Shown here piece after piece: positions 3,869 through 45,166 of a stretch of DNA of 64,000 bases (position 1 is its first letter; the number at the start of each line of letters is the position of its first letter). A program made the translations under genes and the position numbers. The notes below the pieces were generated by a model. That model worked only from the letters and a program-made list of their open reading frames with translations, was not told where the DNA came from and did not search any database. The stretch comes from Escherichia phage vB_EcoM_JB75. The DNA is taken from sequence record MH355584.1; one strand, 5' to 3'.

Positions 3869-4024
3869 ATGAATATCGCAAAATTATTAGGAGTTATTTC
3901 ATTTATTTGTTGGATAGTAGCATGTGTTTTAACTATCTGTATCGATGCCAGCAGTGTGTTTTCGCAGGCTTTAGCCCAAGGTATGTGTGCATATTTAACA
4001 TTTGTGTTGTTATCTAATGATTAA
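3869..4024 (+). CDS. ac: acriflavine-resistance membrane peptide Ac (51 aa)
   Basis: 51 aa hydrophobic ORF directly after stp with SD gaggaaaat; matches T4 ac in length and position. Confidence 0.7.
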   Translation: MNIAKLLGVISFICWIVACVLTICIDASSVFSQALAQGMCAYLTFVLLSND

Positions 4025-4157
4025 GAAAATCTTGGGCTATTCATTAGCCCTTGCTATTTTATTGATAGCGTTATATTACGGAATAATGTTCGGATTAATT
4101 CAAGTCGTGCTTTTCATTTCTGATGTTATTATGGCACTACATTCACTAGTATGGTAA
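4017..4157 (+). CDS. small membrane peptide (46 aa), 52.1-like
   Basis: MIKKILGYSLALAILLIALYYGIMFGLIQVVLFISDVIMALHSLVW; overlaps the ac stop; lies just upstream of gene 52. Confidence 0.45.
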   Translation: MIKKILGYSLALAILLIALYYGIMFGLIQVVLFISDVIMALHSLVW

Positions 4158-4161
4158 ATTT

Positions 4162-5490
4162 ATGCAACTGAATAATCGCGATTTAAAAAGTATCATTGAT
4201 AATGAAGCATTGGCTTATGCTATGTACACGGTTGAAAATCGTGCTATCCCAAATATGATTGATGGATTTAAGCCAGTTCAACGATTTGTTATTGCTCGAG
4301 CTCTTGATTTGGCACGAGGAAATAAAGATAAGTTTCACAAACTCGCTTCTATTGCAGGTGGTGTAGCGGACCTTGGATATCACCATGGCGAAAACTCTGC
4401 ACAAGACGCAGGCGCTTTGATGGCTAATACTTGGAATAATAATTTTCCTTTGTTAGATGGTCAAGGAAACTTCGGTTCTCGTACTGTCCAAAAGGCAGCA
4501 GCAAGTCGTTATATTTTTGCTCGTGTAAGTAAAAATTTCTATAACGTATATAAAGATACTGAATATGCTCCGGTACATCAAGATAAAGAACACATTCCGC
4601 CTGCTTTCTATTTGCCTATTATTCCTACTGTTCTTCTTAATGGCGTTTCCGGTATTGCAACTGGTTATGCAACTTACATTCTTCCTCATAGTGTTTCTTC
4701 TGTTAAGAAAGCTGTACTGCAAGCTCTTCAAGGAAAGAAAGTAACTAAACCGAAGGTAGAATTCCCAGAATTTCGTGGTGAAGTCGTTGAGATTGACGGT
4801 CAATATGAAATTCGTGGAACATATAAGTTTACTTCACGAACTCAAATGCATATCACTGAGATTCCGTATAAGTATGATCGTGAAACTTATGTGAGTAAAA
4901 TCTTAGACCCGCTTGAAGATAAAGGCTTCATTACATGGGATGATGCTTGTGGTGAGCATGGCTTTGGCTTCAAAGTTAAATTCCGAAAAGAATACTCTTT
5001 GAGCGATAATGAAGAAGAACGCCATGCAAAAATTATGAAAGACTTCGGGTTGATTGAGCGTCGTTCCCAGAATATTACCGTCATTAATGAGAAAGGAAAG
5101 CTGCAAGTTTACGATAATGTAGTTGATTTAATCAAAGACTTCGTTGAAGTTCGTAAAACTTATGTCCAAAAACGAATTGATAACAAAATCAAAGAAACTG
5201 AATCAGCATTTCGTTTAGCTTTTGCCAAGGCACATTTCATTAAGAAAGTAATTTCAGGTGAAATTGTTGTACAAGGTAAAACTCGCAAAGAACTGACCGA
5301 AGAACTTTCTAAAATTGATATGTATTCTTCTTATGTTGATAAACTAGTTGGAATGAACATTTTTCATATGACTTCCGACGAAGCAAAGAAACTTGCTGAA
5401 GAAGCTAAAGCCAAAAAAGAAGAAAACGAATATTGGAAAACTACTGATGTAGTTACAGAATACACCAAAGATTTAGAGGAAATCAAATGA
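4162..5490 (+). CDS. 52: DNA topoisomerase II medium subunit gp52 (442 aa)
   Basis: 442 aa as in T4 gp52; N-terminal region AYAMYTVENRAIPNMIDGFKPVQRFVI resembles the GyrA/ParC N-terminal motif; adjacent to motA. Confidence 0.85.
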   Translation: MQLNNRDLKSIIDNEALAYAMYTVENRAIPNMIDGFKPVQRFVIARALDLARGNKDKFHKLASIAGGVADLGYHHGENSAQDAGALMANTWNNNFPLLDGQGNFGSRTVQKAAASRYIFARVSKNFYNVYKDTEYAPVHQDKEHIPPAFYLPIIPTVLLNGVSGIATGYATYILPHSVSSVKKAVLQALQGKKVTKPKVEFPEFRGEVVEIDGQYEIRGTYKFTSRTQMHITEIPYKYDRETYVSKILDPLEDKGFITWDDACGEHGFGFKVKFRKEYSLSDNEEERHAKIMKDFGLIERRSQNITVINEKGKLQVYDNVVDLIKDFVEVRKTYVQKRIDNKIKETESAFRLAFAKAHFIKKVISGEIVVQGKTRKELTEELSKIDMYSSYVDKLVGMNIFHMTSDEAKKLAEEAKAKKEENEYWKTTDVVTEYTKDLEEIK

Positions 5491-15288: not shown

Positions 15289-18200
15289 TTATTCAATCCA
15301 CTCAAATTTAACAGTTTTATTCACTGGGTCAGGAATAATGCGAACATTACCAATTCGCAAGAAATCGCGAATAGTAAGATTACCTATTATTCCATTATCA
15401 GATGGGATCGCTCCTATATCTGAAGGTTGAGGAGGGTTACCTCCGTCAAATACCTGAACAAAACTTGACCAAGAGTTTTTGGTTTTCTGCCATGTACGTG
15501 TCCAGCGAGTGGTACGTGCTTCTGGGGTCGTTGGATAAGTAATCCAATCTTGGTAAAGTGAATCAAGTGTGTTACCAAACTGAGTCAATGTACCAGGAGA
15601 TTTAACTTCTTCGCCACGTTCTAAATATGGAAGACCAGTCACTTCATTAGTTTTTTCAACCATTTTAAAATAACCAGGGAATTGATTATAAGTGGCTGAA
15701 TCATTAATATCAATTGACCAGAATCCTACTGTATCAGATGTTGGTGCGCGAGTGTATAAATCAGAAGTTTTAGTACCTTGAGAACGAATTCTCGAGTTAA
15801 CAGTTAAACCGCCTGAACTTATAGTAGCACCTTTTGCAATGATTAAGCTTTCACCAATTGTAACCTGACCAGATTGATTATTAATTGATACTGGACGTAA
15901 TCCATTAAATCCACCAGTCTGATCACCCGATGCAGTAAGCATAAAATTCGTTACTGATCCATCATTGCGAACAATGAAACCATAATTTCCGTTAATAGCA
16001 CGGAAAGCATTTGCGCTTCGAGAAATAATTTCACCAGTTGCAGTGACTGAATTACCAAATGTTGCTACACCATTTGCATTCAATGTTCCTGAAGCATTAA
16101 CATTTATCGGTGTTACTGTACCGTTGATATTAAATGTTATATTTCCAGCTTTATTACGCTGAGAATAAAAATGACTAGACGTTTCATCACTAACTTCAAA
16201 TACGGTAGAACGTGTTGTGTCTGATTCCCCGCTAAATTGATTTCCCCACACTCTGACTGTCATCGTTTGAGCCGGGTTTGTTCCAGTTTGAGGTCCTTTC
16301 TCAAAAATCAGACGAGTTGCCGTTCCAGTATTAGAAATAGTTAATGTACTATTTGCTGAAACTGATCCACCGAATGTAGCAGTACTAGATGATACAAGAG
16401 GGGCACCCAGATTCGTTTGTTGGGTTAAGGTTAGTGAACCATTAACTGTTTGTGCAATGTCCCTACGAATGAACTGGAGCGAATCTAGACCATCTAATAA
16501 ATTACTATCTACGGCTTTTGCTTTTAATGGCAAATAATTTGCTAATACGCGATTTAATTCATATGGTGATACTGCATAACCATTTTTCTCATATGATTCT
16601 AATGGCTGTGTTGAACCAGCTGTATCATTACCAACGAATGTAATTGAACCAGACGAAGTTTTAACAAAACCTCTTATCGCAGTAGTCGCTGCCCAAGTAG
16701 GTTCACTCTGCACAATCCATTTTAAATTTTTTGGAGATACAGCAGTATTTGCTGACGTTCCAGCTACAGTTTCAGATCGAGTTGCAACTTTAATAACGCC
16801 TTCCTGTGCTTCAGTAGATTTAGTACCTAAAAGCTTTTTAGGAGTTATTAGAACATTATCCAATGTTCCTGCAGCAGCTTCAACTTGTGTAGCTACACGA
16901 AGTGTACCACGCTGTGTCTCATTTGCTTCAAGAATATTAAGGGTATAATGGTCCCAGAGAGTTCCTGATTCAACTAATCCAGATAGAGCAACAACAGAAG
17001 TACGATCAGTACTATTAAATCTGGTTTTAATTTTTAATGGTGTAGAGATACGAGTATCGTCGACGCCTGCGTCGAATTCAACTTGCGTAGCAATTTCAGC
17101 TATACCACTTAAACTTTCAGTTGCTCTACGGTCATTTAAAGTTTTAGGAGTGACTGCGCGAGTATAATCAGTTCCTGTATTAACTTCGCTTTGCGTAGCA
17201 ATTTCAATTAAACCAATTCTTCCATCAGTTGATGTCTTTTTATGTAACGTTTCTGGTGTTACAACCGCATTTGCCCATCCTTCTTGGCTTTGTCCAGCAA
17301 TTACTTCACTTTCAACTGCTAAAATTACTGCGCCTTGTTGCGTTGGAGTAGCTTTATACTGATCCAAAGCTTTAGGTGAAACAACTAAATTATTAGTGTT
17401 TTTATTATAAACATTCGTACCATTTAATTCACGACTAGAAGCTGGAGTAGCTCCTGCGGTAGATACAAAAGTTACAATACCAGATAATGATTCAGAACCT
17501 TGGCGAGCTTGAAGCTTTTTAGGAGTAATGATTGTAGTATCATCAGTACCTGTATTAGTTTCCTGCTGCGTAGCAATTTCAGCGACACCTCTGCGAGTTT
17601 CTGTAGCAGTTCTTTCATTCAGCTTTTTAGGAGTGATGATAAGGTCATCTGCAAAAGAGAATGTGGTGTTCTGATTTACTTGAGCAGTAGTTGCTATTCT
17701 TGCAATACCTCTGCGAGTTTCAGTAGCAGTACGATTAGCTAACGTTTCTGGAGTAATTGCTAATTCTTTTTGTGGAGAATTTTCTAAATCAGCATTTGCT
17801 TGAGCTTGTGTAGCTAAAGCAATTACGCCTAATCTTGCTCTAGTAGAATTATTTAAAGAATCGACTCTTTCAACTGTTGGAACGTTTTGCTGTACAACCC
17901 AGTATTTTCCATCAGAATCTTCTATATAAGCAAGTTGCAAAACTGGTACATAATTAGTTTCACCATTAAAAACTAATTCTTGAACTGTTACCCATTCAGC
18001 TTCAGGCGGATATTCTGAACGTTTTGGGAATTGCAGCAATTGAACTGAAGAAGCAATTTTATCTTCACCAGCAGCTTTGATTTTAACTGTTTGTCCTTTT
18101 CTCATGTAATTCATGGAAATTTTAACAGTATCACCAACAGAAATATCAGTCGGAAGCTGAAGTTCAATTGTTTGGGTTGTTCCATTATTCGCGCCAAATA

Positions 18201-39658: not shown

Positions 39659-39861
39659 ATATAATTAATAAGATTTTTGGAATTCAGTACATTAAGGTCA
39701 CATATAAAGTAACAGATAAAAATCCATATACCGATGAACATGAAGAACCACAAATTGAGTCTATTATATTAGAAAAAGGCAGTGACTGGCCAGTTGAATT
39801 TCGTCTACCAAACTATGGTCATTGGGCTGATGTTGAAATTATAAGCATTGAAAATGTCTGA
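39655..39861 (+). CDS. hypothetical protein (68 aa)
   Basis: Translationally coupled ORF. Confidence 0.5.
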   Translation: MNIINKIFGIQYIKVTYKVTDKNPYTDEHEEPQIESIILEKGSDWPVEFRLPNYGHWADVEIISIENV

Positions 39862-40312
39862 GTTAGAGATTAGAAGTAATTTTAGGTGGCCATCATGTGC
39901 ATTAAGTAATTTCGCCCATTGGCCTTTCGTTATGGATGGTATTCAATTTGGAGGTCTTGAAGGATTCCTCCAAGGATGCAAGGTGAAAAACGTTGAACAA
40001 CAACGTCGTATATTTGGGTTATCCGGGCTTGCCGCTCAACAAGCTGGAAGGTCTTATGCTAGAGCTCAGGACCGTGGGACCCTCTTCTGGCTTGGAGTTC
40101 CATTTTCAAGATACTCCCCGGCGTGGAAAGAATTATGCACAAATGCATATTTTGAAGCAGCGATTCAAAACAAGGGCTTTCGTGATGCATTACAAGCCTC
40201 GAAAGGAAAAGTTTTGAAGCACAGCATGGCTAGTGGTCTAACAAAAGATGATACAATACTAACCGAAGCTGAATTTATTGATGTGTTAAACCTATTAAGA
40301 GACTCTCTATGA
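39854..40312 (+). CDS. NADAR/YbiA-like (DUF1768) protein (152 aa)
   Basis: LSNFAHWPFVMDGIQFGGLEGFLQGCK resembles the N-terminal signature of the NADAR/YbiA family as I recall it; assignment is from motif memory, not a search. Confidence 0.5.
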   Translation: MSELEIRSNFRWPSCALSNFAHWPFVMDGIQFGGLEGFLQGCKVKNVEQQRRIFGLSGLAAQQAGRSYARAQDRGTLFWLGVPFSRYSPAWKELCTNAYFEAAIQNKGFRDALQASKGKVLKHSMASGLTKDDTILTEAEFIDVLNLLRDSL

Positions 40313-41145
40313 AGCCTACTATTTTAACTGATATTGATGGAGTATGTTTAAGCTGGCAATCAGGTCTTCCTTATTTTGCTCAGAAATATAATCTTCCGTT
40401 AGAACATATTTTAAAAATGATCCAGGATGAGAAATTTATTTCTCCAGGTAAACTCTTTAATTGTGACGAAGAACTTGGCGTCAAGCTAATTGAAAAATAC
40501 AATCGTTCAGATTTTATTCGTTACTTGTCTCCATATAAAGATGCTCTGTGTGTAATTAACAAATTAAAAGAAGATTATAATTTTGTAGCTGTTACAGCAT
40601 TGGGTGATTCTATTGACGCTCTGCTGAATCGTCAATTTAATTTGAACGCTCTTTTTCCTGGTGCCTTCTCAGAAGTACTGATGTGTGGTCATGATTCTTC
40701 AAAAGAAGAGTTGTTTAAAAAGGCAAAAGAGAAATATAACGTGATTTGTTATATTGACGATCTCGCTCACCATTGCGATCATGCGAGTGAAATATTAAAT
40801 GTTCCTGTTTATTGGATGGCTCGAGGAGAGCGTGACAATATTCCAAAAACTGCTCAGCGAGTTTATACATGGAATGATGTAGAGAATAAGCTTTTTCCAC
40901 CGAAGGAAAATAAAGAAAGTTTTGATCGTGAAAAAGCTATAAAAGATGTAATTGAAAAGATGATTAAAAACGATTCTTTTCCTTGGAACACTACCTGGAG
41001 AACTCCTGGATTTAATCCTTATAATCCATATCATCCATATCAGACGCATCCGTTTCAGACATGGAACTATATTAAACCCGGTGGCATAGAGTATTTGTAT
41101 AATAGACCTACTGGTGCTAATAATATTTTCCAAGGAGCATTCTAA
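40309..41145 (+). CDS. HAD-like hydrolase-fold protein with Pro/Tyr-rich C-terminal tail (278 aa)
   Basis: N-terminal ILTDIDGV fits HAD motif I (DxDGx); C-terminus has NPYNPYHPYQTHPFQTWNY repeats. Confidence 0.5.
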   Translation: MKPTILTDIDGVCLSWQSGLPYFAQKYNLPLEHILKMIQDEKFISPGKLFNCDEELGVKLIEKYNRSDFIRYLSPYKDALCVINKLKEDYNFVAVTALGDSIDALLNRQFNLNALFPGAFSEVLMCGHDSSKEELFKKAKEKYNVICYIDDLAHHCDHASEILNVPVYWMARGERDNIPKTAQRVYTWNDVENKLFPPKENKESFDREKAIKDVIEKMIKNDSFPWNTTWRTPGFNPYNPYHPYQTHPFQTWNYIKPGGIEYLYNRPTGANNIFQGAF

Positions 41146-41414
41146 TGTTTGTTGTTCACACTATTTATGAAAATGAAGGTAATACTACGCGTGATTACGG
41201 TCACGTAAATCAATTTTTTAGATGCAATCCAGAATTCCGAGCTCAAAAAGACGAACGAATTTTTAAAAAATGTGTAGAGCAAGGTTTCATTTACGTCAAG
41301 CACTGGATGCAAGGAAATAAAGTTAGAACCACGTACCACAGGTCTTTGACTGAGCTTAATGATGAATTGATTTATAATAGAGCTGTAAACCAAACTCTAA
41401 AGGATGAACAATGA
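41145..41414 (+). CDS. hypothetical protein (89 aa)
   Basis: ORF coupled to gene 30. Confidence 0.5.
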   Translation: MFVVHTIYENEGNTTRDYGHVNQFFRCNPEFRAQKDERIFKKCVEQGFIYVKHWMQGNKVRTTYHRSLTELNDELIYNRAVNQTLKDEQ

Positions 41415-42874
41415 TTCTTAAAATTCTGAACGAAATAGCATCTATTGGTTCAACTAAGCAGAAGCAAGCAATTCTTGAAAAGAATAAAGATAATGAATTG
41501 CTTAAACGAGTATATCGTCTGACTTATTCTCGTGGGTTACAGTATTATATCAAGAAATGGCCTAAACCTGGTATTGCTACCCAGAGTTTTGGAATGTTGA
41601 CTCTTACTGATATGCTTGACTTCATTGAATTCACGTTAGCTACTCGGAAATTGACTGGAAATGCGGCAATTGAAGAATTAATTGGTTATATTACTGACGG
41701 TAAAAAAGATGATGTTGAAGTTTTGCGTCGAGTGATGATGCGAGACCTTGAATGTGGTGCTTCAGTATCTATTGCAAACAAAGTTTGGCCAGGTTTAATT
41801 CCTGAACAACCTCAAATGCTCGCAAGTTCTTATGATGAAAAAGGCATTAATAAGAATATCAAATTTCCAGCCTTTGCCCAGTTAAAAGCTGATGGAGCTC
41901 GGTGCTTTGCCGAAGTCAGAGGTGATGAATTAGATGACGTTCGTCTTTTATCACGAGCTGGTAATGAATATCTAGGATTAGATCTTCTTAAGGAAGAATT
42001 AATCAAAATGACCGCTGAAGCCCGCCAGATTCATCCAGAAGGCGTGTTAATTGATGGCGAATTGGTATACCATGAGCAAGTTGAAAAGGAGCCAGAAGGC
42101 CTAGATTTTCTTTTTGATGCTTATCCTGAAAACAGTAAAGCTAAAGAATTCGCCGAAGTAGCTGAATCACGTACTGCATCTAATGGCATCGCCAATAAAT
42201 CTTTAAAGGGAACCATTTCTGAAAAAGAAGCACAATGCATGAAGTTTCAGGTCTGGGATTATGTACCGTTGGTAGAAATATACGGTCTTCCTGCATTTCG
42301 TTTGAAATATGATGTACGTTTTTCTAAACTAGAACAAATGACATCAGGCTATGATAAAGTAATTTTAATTGAAAACCAGGTAGTAAATAACCTAGACGAA
42401 GCCAAGGTAATTTATAAAAAGTATATTGACCAAGGTCTTGAAGGTATTATTCTCAAAAATATCGATGGATTATGGGAAAATGCTCGTTCAAAAAATCTCT
42501 ATAAATTTAAAGAAGTAATTGATGTTGATTTAAAAATTGTAGGAATTTATCCTCACCGTAAAGACCCTACTAAAGCAGGTGGATTTATTCTTGAGTCAGA
42601 GTGTGGAAAAATTAAAGTAAATGCTGGTTCAGGCTTAAAAGATAAAGCCGGTGTAAAATCGCATGAACTTGACCGTACTCGCATTATGGAAAACCAAAAT
42701 TATTATATTGGAAAAATTCTAGAGTGCGAATGCAACGGTTGGTTAAAATCTGATGGCCGCACTGATTACGTTAAATTATTTCTTCCGATTGCGATTCGTT
42801 TGCGTGAAGATAAAACTAAAGCTAATACATTCGAGGATGTATTTGGTGATTTTCATGAGGTAACTGGTTTATGA
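41411..42874 (+). CDS. 30: ATP-dependent DNA ligase gp30 (487 aa)
   Basis: 487 aa as T4 DNA ligase; N-terminus MILKILNEIASIGSTKQKQAIL; adenylation motif KADGAR. Confidence 0.93.
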   Translation: MILKILNEIASIGSTKQKQAILEKNKDNELLKRVYRLTYSRGLQYYIKKWPKPGIATQSFGMLTLTDMLDFIEFTLATRKLTGNAAIEELIGYITDGKKDDVEVLRRVMMRDLECGASVSIANKVWPGLIPEQPQMLASSYDEKGINKNIKFPAFAQLKADGARCFAEVRGDELDDVRLLSRAGNEYLGLDLLKEELIKMTAEARQIHPEGVLIDGELVYHEQVEKEPEGLDFLFDAYPENSKAKEFAEVAESRTASNGIANKSLKGTISEKEAQCMKFQVWDYVPLVEIYGLPAFRLKYDVRFSKLEQMTSGYDKVILIENQVVNNLDEAKVIYKKYIDQGLEGIILKNIDGLWENARSKNLYKFKEVIDVDLKIVGIYPHRKDPTKAGGFILESECGKIKVNAGSGLKDKAGVKSHELDRTRIMENQNYYIGKILECECNGWLKSDGRTDYVKLFLPIAIRLREDKTKANTFEDVFGDFHEVTGL

Positions 42875-43108: not shown

Positions 43109-45166
43109 ATGATGGAACTTATTACAGAATTATTTGACGAAGATACTACTCTTCCGATTACAAACTTAAATCCAAAGAAGAAAATACCGCAAATTTTTTC
43201 AGTTCATGTTGATGATGCAATTGAACAACCAGGCTTTCGTTTATGTACCTATACATCTGGAGGTGATACTAATCGCGATTTAAAGATGGGCGATAAAATG
43301 ATGCATATTGTTCCTTTTACATTAACTGCTAAAGGTTCAATTGCTAAATTAAAAGGTCTTGGTCCAAGCCCAATTAATTATATCAATTCAGTTTTTACTG
43401 TTGCGATGCAAACAATGCGTCAGTATAAAATTGATGCCTGTATGCTTCGTATTCTTAAGTCTAAAACCGCTGGTCAAGCTCGACAAATTCAAGTTATTGC
43501 TGATAGACTTATCCGTAGTCGTTCAGGTGGCAGATACGTCCTTCTTAAGGAACTCTGGGATTACGATAAAAAGTATGCATATATTCTTATACATCGCAAA
43601 AATGTATCACTAGAAGACATTCCGGGAGTTCCGGAAATTAGTACTGAGCTCTTTACTAAAGTTGAATCGAAGGTCGGTGATGTTTATATCAATAAAGATA
43701 CTGGAGCTCAAGTAACTAAAAATGAGGCAATTGCAGCATCTATTGCGCAAGAAAATGATAAACGTTCTGACCAAGCTGTAATCGTTAAAGTTAAAATTTC
43801 CCGTAGAGCAATTGCGCAAAGTCAATCATTGGAATCTTCTAGATTTGAAACGCCGATGTTTCAAAAATTTGAGGCTTCAGCAGCAGAATTAAATAAACCT
43901 GCTGACGCTCCTTTAATTTCTGACGCTAATGAATTAACTGTTATTTCTACTTCAGGATTTGCATTAGAGAATGCTCTTAGTAGTGTTACAGCTGGAATGG
44001 CATTCAGAGAAGCTTCTATAATTCCTGAAGATAAAGAATCTGATGTTAATGCAGAAATAAAAAATAAAGCTTTAGAAAGATTACGAAAAGAATCTATTAC
44101 TTCAATAAAAACTTTAGAAACTATTGCTTCTATAGTTGATGATACTTTAGAAAAATATAAAGGTGCTTGGTTAGAAAGAAACATTAACAAGCATTCGCAT
44201 TTAAATCAAGATGCTGCGAATGAGTTAGTACAAAATTCTTGGAATGCAATAAAAACAAAGATTATTCGAAGAGAATTGCGTGGATATGCTCTTACCGCTG
44301 GATGGTCACTACATCCTATAGTCGAAAATAAAGATTCATCTAAATACACACCGGCACAAAAACGCGGAATTCGTGAATACGTAAGTTCAGGATATGTAGA
44401 CATAAATAACGCTCTTTTGGGATTATATAATCCAGATGAGCGTACAAGTATTTTGACAGCATCTGATATAGAAAAAGCTATTGATAATTTAGATTCTGCC
44501 TTTAAAAATGGTGAACGATTACCAAAAGGTATTACTTTGTATCGTTCACAACGAATGTTACCTTCAATATATGAAGCACTGGTAAAAAATCGAGTTTTTT
44601 ATTTTAGAAATTTTGTGTCAACATCATTATATCCAAATATTTTTGGTACCTGGATGACTGATTCATCTGTGGGTGTTTTACCAGACGAAAAGCGTTTAAG
44701 TGTTTCTATTGATAAAACTGATGAAGGACTAGTAAATTCTAGCGATAATTTAGTTGGAATTGGATGGGTTATTACTGGGGCTGATAAAGTCAATGTTGTT
44801 TTACCAGGTGGAAGTTTAGCACCTTCAAATGAAATGGAAGTCATTTTGCCACGTGGATTAATGGTCAAAGTTAATAAAATAACCGATGCATCTTACAATG
44901 ATGGAACAGTTAAAACTAACAACAAGCTTATTCAAGCTGAAGTTATGACCACAGAAGAACTCACCGAATCGGTAATTTATGACGGTGACCGTCTAATGGA
45001 AACCGGCGAAGTAGTTACAATGACAGGTGATATTGAAATAGAAGACAGAGTTGATTTTGCATCATTTGTTTCATCAAATGTTAAACAGAAAGTAGAATCA
45101 TCTCTTGGAATTATTGCGTCTTGTATAGATATTGCAAACATGCCTTACAAGTTCGTTCAAGGATAA
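43109..45166 (+). CDS. alt: Alt-family ADP-ribosyltransferase paralog 1 (685 aa)
   Basis: N-terminus MELITELFD conserved with the adjacent paralog; R-S-E motifs (LYRSQ, FVSTSL, EVILPRG); size close to T4 Alt (682 aa). Confidence 0.8.
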   Translation: MMELITELFDEDTTLPITNLNPKKKIPQIFSVHVDDAIEQPGFRLCTYTSGGDTNRDLKMGDKMMHIVPFTLTAKGSIAKLKGLGPSPINYINSVFTVAMQTMRQYKIDACMLRILKSKTAGQARQIQVIADRLIRSRSGGRYVLLKELWDYDKKYAYILIHRKNVSLEDIPGVPEISTELFTKVESKVGDVYINKDTGAQVTKNEAIAASIAQENDKRSDQAVIVKVKISRRAIAQSQSLESSRFETPMFQKFEASAAELNKPADAPLISDANELTVISTSGFALENALSSVTAGMAFREASIIPEDKESDVNAEIKNKALERLRKESITSIKTLETIASIVDDTLEKYKGAWLERNINKHSHLNQDAANELVQNSWNAIKTKIIRRELRGYALTAGWSLHPIVENKDSSKYTPAQKRGIREYVSSGYVDINNALLGLYNPDERTSILTASDIEKAIDNLDSAFKNGERLPKGITLYRSQRMLPSIYEALVKNRVFYFRNFVSTSLYPNIFGTWMTDSSVGVLPDEKRLSVSIDKTDEGLVNSSDNLVGIGWVITGADKVNVVLPGGSLAPSNEMEVILPRGLMVKVNKITDASYNDGTVKTNNKLIQAEVMTTEELTESVIYDGDRLMETGEVVTMTGDIEIEDRVDFASFVSSNVKQKVESSLGIIASCIDIANMPYKFVQG

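Follow-up and report, generated by a model that had tools for sequence, protein, structure and literature searches.

In the 64,000-nucleotide stretch of Escherichia phage vB_EcoM_JB75 DNA analysed here (sequence record MH355584.1; hereafter the window), the ortholog of T4 gene 30.2 encodes a protein, gp30.2, that joins a HAD-type catalytic core to a proline- and aromatic-rich C-terminal tail. On sequence and structure-model grounds we propose, with a probability of about 0.6, that gp30.2 is a Mg2+-dependent nucleotide monophosphatase that would be gated by a helical cap and tethered by a tail carrying short linear motifs. Its gene identity, motifs, fold, family links and tail features are read from the data given below, and from them we infer its catalysis, substrate class and partner binding. 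The window protein shares 97% identity with T4 gp30.2 (NP_049815, annotated as 'hypothetical protein'), and the DNA of the gene matched 522 phage records, with more than 500 Tequatrovirus records, at 80-99.5% identity; the window is a portion of a Tequatrovirus (T4-like) genome.

40309..41145, + strand: coding sequence of the T4 gene 30.2 ortholog, 278 amino acids (aa) plus stop, an ATG-to-TAA open reading frame (ORF) in the ORF list

Catalytic motifs

Searching 5.8 billion proteins for homologues yielded 100 clusters, and conservation was assessed in three alignments: A1, in which representatives of 77 of the clusters (the 77 homologues) were aligned; A2, of 28 sequences, like A1 an alignment of close homologues; and A3, of 70 distant family members, sampled from the relatives that the gp30.2 core profile retrieved at E < 1e-20. 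The catalytic region contains the following features, with model confidence given as the AlphaFold2 predicted local distance difference test score (pLDDT) and constraint as the ratio of nonsynonymous to synonymous polymorphism (pN/pS) among seven Tequatroviruses:

40309..40893, + strand: HAD catalytic core, residues 1-195 (AlphaFold2 pLDDT >90; Foldseek; pN/pS 0.04)
40324..40344, + strand: HAD motif I, LTDIDGV, with putative nucleophile D8 and general acid/base D10 (D8 and D10 invariant in A1-A3)
40348..40572, + strand: helical cap (C1 type) directly after motif I, residues ~14-88, including W16-Q-S-G-L (AlphaFold2)
40582..40605, + strand: HAD motif II, FVAVTALG, with T96 (at least 90% conserved in A1 and A3)
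40624..40668, + strand: family signature LNRQFNLNALFPGAF, with R108, N111, L112, F116 and P117 (A1 and A3)
40696..40710, + strand: HAD motif III, with K132 (invariant in A1-A3)
40750..40764, + strand: HAD motif IV, YIDDL, with D150 and D151 (both at least 90% conserved in A1 and A2)

An earlier reading made from the letters alone (the sequence-only reading) had claimed a HAD-type motif I, and this is borne out: ILTDIDGV occupies residues 5-12, and D8-I-D10-G-V12 fits the HAD phosphatase form DxDx[TV], in which the second Asp is the general acid/base. Absence of motifs II-IV had been named there as grounds for giving up the HAD assignment; the assignment stands, with T96, K132 and D150-D151 conserved in the 77 homologues. 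Among the distant members of A3, D151 is the only residue of motif IV listed as at least 90% conserved. The model places T96, K132 and D150-D151 where strands 2 and 4 are predicted to end and where helix 133-142 starts. The family also has residues of its own, namely W16, S18, R108, N111, F116, P117 and R172, all at least 90% conserved in A1; W16 and S18 do not vary in either A1 or A2, and R108 is invariant even in the distant members.

If gp30.2 follows the HAD mechanism, D8 would attack the phosphomonoester while Mg2+ is held by D8, D150 and D151; D10 would serve as general acid/base; and T96 and K132 would hold the phosphate.

Predicted fold and helical cap

AlphaFold2 gives the core the topology strand 1, five cap helices, strand 2, helix, strand 3, helix, strand 4, helix, strand 5, and the five cap helices (residues 16-26, 32-40, 46-49, 54-65 and 77-86) all lie between motifs I and II. 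Foldseek returned 102 matches in the PDB at E <= 1e-3, and the best 50 of the 102 are all HAD-fold proteins. The best match is 2jao, the mouse cytosolic 5'(3')-deoxyribonucleotidase (cdN); 3bwv (a staphylococcal deoxyribonucleotidase-like protein), 2i7d, 4yih and 1mh9 are also in the best 50, and human cdN and mdN rank high. The leading matches have E values of ~1e-7 to 1e-8 and template modelling (TM) scores on the target of 0.64-0.69; deoxyribonucleotidases (3bwv, 2i7d) are interleaved among them with other capped HADs, and the deoxyribonucleotidase matches have the lowest root-mean-square deviation (4.5-5.3). Many matches among the predicted viral structures of BFVD are phage proteins annotated as 5'-nucleotidases.

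The helical cap would restrict access to small substrates. HADs that act on macromolecules, such as the phosphatase domain of polynucleotide kinase (PNK), lack such a cap, and this bears on a reading of gp30.2 as a DNA-end 3'-phosphatase that cleans nicks for the ligase, for example after ADP-ribose removal or nuclease damage. The conserved order of 30.2, a small ORF and the ligase gene across Straboviridae, including Acinetobacter phage Acj9, would suit this role, as would a weak match to a PHROG annotated polynucleotide kinase (E 0.003) and the weak match of one distant member to HAD_PNKP. However, these PNK-type matches are marginal; small-substrate HADs typically have a cap like the one predicted between motifs I and II, and the five helices predicted over residues 16-86 differ from the cap-less (C0) core of PNKP-type 3'-phosphatases; and T4 already encodes a 3'-phosphatase, PseT. 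We consider a DNA-end role very unlikely.

Links to deoxyribonucleotidases

Single-sequence searches with the window protein gave no PADLOC match and no significant PDB sequence match, and PHROGs places the protein in phrog_420, 'unknown function'. Its score stays below the gathering score of Pfam NT5C (PF06941), for which the best E value among close homologues is 1.2e-4. With a close-family profile, the best PDB sequence is cdN (E 0.086), and DIDGV...WQSGL pairs with MDGV...FESGL of the mouse enzyme. A core-only profile run against 1.84 billion representatives found 1,444 relatives (634 at E <= 1e-10), most of which are single-domain proteins of 190-220 aa without tails. Pfam assigned 34 of the 70 distant members to NT5C (best E 4e-10), 15 to generic HAD and 11 to HAD_2, and the joint profile of these members aligns over its full length with 3bwv, described as a bacterial 'putative 5'(3')-deoxyribonucleotidase' (E 1.9e-5). 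The gp30.2 family is linked to NT5C by homology through intermediate sequences and profiles, and gp30.2 itself appears, from these comparisons, to be a divergent and mainly phage-borne branch adjoining NT5C, below the formal Pfam threshold but resembling an NT5C-type enzyme in fold and motifs. The earlier suggestion of a nucleotidase or phosphatase gains support from the four HAD motifs, the HAD fold, and the profile links to deoxyribonucleotidases and Pfam NT5C.

Outside phage records, 185,579 bacterial and archaeal genomes yielded one locus, at 4001-4594 of NZ_JBHSCL010000010.1 ('Flagellimonas marina'), where the homologue is 48% identical; this 178,077-base contig, of T4-type phage size, is probably phage sequence inside a bacterial assembly. 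A few database records of orthologues are already labelled 'putative phosphatase' or 'HAD-superfamily hydrolase', and no functional study of gp30.2 (NP_049815, P32275) was found in the literature searched.

The C-terminal tail

The appendage past the catalytic core comprises 83 residues (196-278), predicted as a helix followed by a disordered part:

40912..40968, + strand: amphipathic helix opening the tail, residues 202-220 (AlphaFold2 pLDDT ~70-88; pN/pS 0.13)
40978..41070, + strand: Pro/aromatic-rich low-complexity segment FPWNTTWRTPGFNPYNPYHPYQTHPFQTWNY (compositional outlier; pLDDT 46-59)
41015..41042, + strand: 9-nt tandem repeat, ~3 copies, encoding (N/H)PY (Tandem Repeats Finder)
41077..41112, + strand: C-terminal short motif PGGIEYLYNRPT, family form GTGIEYLxxQPT (16 of 100 cluster representatives)

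The sequence-only reading had described the last ~50 residues as low-complexity NPY/HPY repeats. The low-complexity tail is real and stands out in composition: the NPY/HPY stretch NPYNPYHPYQTHPFQTWNY lies at residues 236-254, and 17 of the 30 residues of PWNTTWRTPGFNPYNPYHPYQTHPFQTWNY (PWNTT...QTWNY) are P, Y, W, F or H, compared with a mean of 4.5 (standard deviation 2.3) in 16,167 30-aa stretches from all window ORFs of at least 100 aa, no other of which comes within 3 of this count. This composition is not a chance effect. What did not hold is the extent of the repeats, as the strict repeat is limited to ~3 copies of the 9-nt unit and the final ~22 residues are instead motif PGGIEYLYNRPT and the clade-specific NIFQGAF.

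Beyond the tail helix, AlphaFold2 confidence is low (pLDDT 42-59). The same is seen in P0036, a Klebsiella-phage homologue that has both tail motifs described below and a deeper alignment: a comparable helix is predicted and the tail pLDDT is 40-64. Docking of the tail motifs on the protein's own core gained no support, the tail being undocked in both AlphaFold2 models; each of them predicts a short turn of helix at IEYL.

The tail is under relaxed constraint relative to the core: pN/pS rises from 0.04 in the core to 0.13 in the helix region, then to 0.25 over the low-complexity part and to 0.68 over the final 23 codons. The number of NPY/HPY/YTH units varies among Tequatroviruses, and protein length ranges from 278 to 290 aa with it. 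A tail of 40 residues or more is present in 54 of the 77 representatives, and most of these tails consist of a helix and then a Pro-rich disordered region, which is strongly aromatic in the window protein; their sequences are clade-specific, with ends such as ...INC or ...LLNKVTANDS in other clades, and some Tequatroviruses have GDAGYFNRFT where others have GGIEYLYNRPT.

Two short motifs recur in these tails. Motif 1, roughly [KR][WY]xxxxPx[DN]L[RK][AP][YW][YW], is seen across tail-bearing clades (e.g. SYRNVKPNDLRAYY, TWRTPGPTDMRPWW and KWVNPGPSDYKPWY); the version in the window and T4 is TWRTPGFNPYNPY, within the low-complexity segment, and the NPY repeats therefore look like an expanded motif 1. 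Motif 2, GTGIEYLxxQPT, ranges from Tequatrovirus to Karamvirus. Six of the nine codons shared between the window and a Karamvirus differ synonymously, and motif 2 is therefore conserved at the protein level. Conservation of the tail as a DNA signal was rejected on the same synonymous differences and on the lack of a MotA pattern at 39-42 kb. The tail codons contain one sigma70-like match (40996-41025), in a region with 13 matches in total compared with 8.7 expected.

These observations bear on whether the tail has any function of its own, or is tolerated as a slippage-prone 3' extension of the gene on what would be a plain soluble enzyme. The pN/pS values of the low-complexity part and the last 23 codons, the variable repeat number among close relatives, the lack of structure seen by AlphaFold2, and the 23 of 77 representatives with little or no tail, close Dhakavirus-type relatives among them, would all fit a functionless extension. 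Yet the frame is open in 7/7 Tequatroviruses examined despite indels; both motifs reappear in different genera whose proteins are ~50% identical overall, with codons that differ synonymously; and the helix-plus-Pro/aromatic plan is kept in most of the 54 tail-bearing representatives, the individual motifs not being universal. We judge a tail without function to be improbable.

The tail has the look of a tether that is disordered, evolves fast and carries two short linear motifs; most plausibly it binds something besides its own core, a step we infer. The idea, raised in the sequence-only reading, that the appendage mediates protein binding is consistent with the predicted disorder, the absence of docking on the core in the models and the conserved short motifs. 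The tether would evolve by repeat expansion and contraction, and its motifs would most likely dock the enzyme onto another protein or complex rather than onto its own core.

An antisense ORF over the tail (40795-41133, - strand, 112 codons) is not conserved, with 82 codons in T4 and none in T6, and is most likely a by-product of biased composition. P0002 (220 aa, 39 member sequences), which resembles a truncated gp30.2, ends in ...RSEEHTSELQSQN, a translated Illumina adapter; its cluster was built on adapter-contaminated contigs, and it is therefore not a real truncation. P0015, a metagenomic protein of 302 aa, is a read-through fusion of the HAD core to DUF3045, in which DUF3045 replaces the Pro/aromatic tail. 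Known from one 1.4-kb contig, it may hint that 30.2 and 30.1 are functionally linked, or it may be an artefact of assembly or a frameshift.

Gene order and expression

Gene order around 30.2 is as in T4, namely 30.3, 30.2, 30.1 (DUF3045), DNA ligase gp30, alt.1 and alt. The immediate neighbours are:

39848..40312, + strand: upstream neighbour 30.3 / AdfN, a NADAR DNA ADP-ribosylglycohydrolase (Pfam Phage_30_3, E 5e-69; function per PMC11825919)
41145..41414, + strand: downstream neighbour 30.1 (Pfam DUF3045, E 3e-64)
41411..42874, + strand: DNA ligase gp30 (ORF list and annotations)

Overlapping stop and start codons join 30.3, 30.2, 30.1 and the ligase gene (ATGA at 40309-40312, TAATG at 41143-41147 and ATGA at 41411-41414), which suggests translational coupling of the four. 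A 74-codon ORF in another frame inside 30.3 (39993-40217, + strand) matches in position T4 30.3' ('internal translation, in a different reading frame').

Omics data for T4 put 30.2 in one class with 30.1 and the ligase gene, that of early RNA and middle protein (PMC9697503 supplements), and gp30.2 protein is therefore made. The MotA-box middle-promoter pattern (TGCTTYA, 11-13 nt, TANNNT) occurs eight times in the window compared with 2.4 expected, at 16924, 20063, 36896, 45895 and 54922 on the + strand and at 44555, 45945 and 61252 on the - strand. This window-wide pattern scan gave no site at 39-42 kb, and 30.2 is therefore probably read from an upstream promoter.

Gene 30.2 is conserved across the T4 superfamily, with 1,439 phage records, and in almost all cases it precedes the ligase gene. 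Tequatrovirus, Mosigvirus, Dhakavirus, Jiaodavirus, Karamvirus and Acinetobacter phage Acj9 all have 30.2, a small ORF, the ligase gene and alt in this order. Four of these genera have DUF3045 as the small ORF; in Karamvirus (locus L003) the small ORF at 4852-5082 was not recognised as DUF3045. The gene 30.3/AdfN lies directly upstream of 30.2 in Tequatrovirus, Mosigvirus, Dhakavirus and Acj9, confirmed by Pfam in the window, Mosigvirus and Acj9, and assigned from position and size in Dhakavirus. In Karamvirus and Jiaodavirus, both of which have a tailed 30.2, the upstream ORFs that were checked showed no NADAR. Farther afield, a distant homologue lies near replication genes in a Pseudomonas jumbo phage; another, in Vibrio phage D525 (locus L015, 3004-3576), lies ~1.5 kb from a nicotinamide phosphoribosyltransferase (NAMPT) gene (1-1478) on the opposite strand, and the D525 record holds a second 30.2-family homologue elsewhere.

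This neighbourhood raises the possibility that gp30.2 is a HAD phosphatase for a small non-nucleotide metabolite: a sugar phosphate, or an NAD- or ADP-ribose-derived phosphoester (such as ribose-5-phosphate or nicotinamide mononucleotide). The substrate would then be tied to the adjacent NAD-consuming and ADP-ribose-releasing enzymes, Alt and AdfN. The presence of the NADAR protein AdfN and the ADP-ribosyltransferase Alt as neighbours, and the Vibrio phage homologue that adjoins the NAMPT gene, speak for this alternative, as do the nearly equal fold matches to capped HADs with other substrates and the matches of the family profile over motifs III-IV to SDT1/SSM1-type and XMP phosphatases and to MDP-1. 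However, the only full-length PDB profile match and the commonest Pfam match in relatives are both of the deoxyribonucleotidase type, and the tailed 30.2 proteins of Karamvirus and Jiaodavirus, where NADAR was not detected, indicate that a link to ADP-ribose is not obligatory. We regard such a substrate as possible, though unlikely.

Discussion

Our analysis favours a nucleotide monophosphatase as the function of gp30.2. Its substrates would most likely be (deoxy)nucleoside monophosphates, which are abundant during T-even host DNA degradation, because the closest relatives in sequence and in fold are 5'(3')-deoxyribonucleotidases; the enzyme would trim or sanitise part of the nucleotide pool. 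T4 reuses host deoxynucleoside monophosphates (dNMPs), and the nucleotidase activity of gp30.2 is therefore probably selective rather than general.

Several observations weigh against the proposed function: searches with the window protein gave neither a Pfam match at E <= 1 nor an NCBIfam match; its identity to solved nucleotidases is just 14-18% in the Foldseek alignments, and capped HADs with non-nucleotide substrates score almost equally by fold; a general dNMPase would counter the reuse of host dNMPs by T4; the last 23 residues evolve almost neutrally within Tequatrovirus; and the tail is small or missing in close E. coli-phage relatives (Dhakavirus-type) with ~75% core identity.

A more specific proposal makes gp30.2 a counter-defence enzyme, either a selective nucleotidase for dNMPs that act as alarms or the T-even factor needed for full AdfN activity. 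In the Kongming system, deoxyadenosine monophosphate (dAMP) from degraded host DNA feeds a dITP signal (bioRxiv 10.1101/2024.12.20.629578); m6-dAMP is the trigger of PUA-Cal-HAD in T2 infection (bioRxiv 10.64898/2026.01.15.699771); and the NADAR protein AdfN (30.3) counters DarTG1, its full activity needing a further T-even factor (PMC11825919). In one version, gp30.2 would erase such alarms, for example dAMP or m6-dAMP; in the other, the motif-bearing tail would recruit gp30.2 to AdfN or to a replication/repair site. We put this forward as a long shot.

The analysis places gp30.2, still 'hypothetical' in T4, as a probable divergent NT5C-like phosphatase. Phage HAD nucleotidases are a known kind, of which gp30.2 would be a divergent, tail-bearing member, and it looks like a fairly ordinary kind of phage enzyme; if it is a plain nucleotide-pool enzyme, only an annotation gap has been filled. 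Two recent studies have made dNMPs from degraded host DNA known as immune triggers, and the T5 enzyme Dmp disarms one such system. The tail offers a compact case of a phage enzyme with what looks like a disordered tether that evolves fast through repeats and holds conserved short motifs.

Among enzymes of solved structure, cdN (NT5C), mdN (NT5M) and 3bwv share with gp30.2 a HAD Rossmannoid core with a helical cap right after motif I, a DxDGV motif I followed by aromatic-[EQ]-SGL, motifs II-IV, and a basic-x-x-x-L...FP string after motif II. In 3bwv, K-x-x-W-L...FP aligns with LNRQFNLNALFPGAF. Unlike these three enzymes, to which it is 14-18% identical, gp30.2 has the 83-residue tail and the family-specific residues W16, R108, N111 and R172.

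T4 PseT belongs to the same phage and shares the superfamily chemistry, with weak PHROG and Pfam cross-matches to gp30.2. The two differ in that the phosphatase domain of PseT is cap-less and acts on nucleic-acid ends, whereas gp30.2 has a full (predicted) helical cap and no kinase domain.

T5 Dmp is, like gp30.2, an early phage enzyme of HAD type, with DLDGT, MIDD and a motif-II Thr read from its translation; it dephosphorylates dNMPs from host DNA and thereby blocks Kongming immunity (bioRxiv 10.1101/2024.12.20.629578). Homology of gp30.2 to Dmp was rejected, as hhalign of the family profile with Dmp gave a probability of 3.4% over 59 columns, a local stretch of motifs III-IV. Judged by sequence, Dmp would thus be a functional precedent for gp30.2 and not a homologue. 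T5 excretes host nucleotides whereas T4 recycles them, and a broad Dmp-like activity is therefore not expected in T4.

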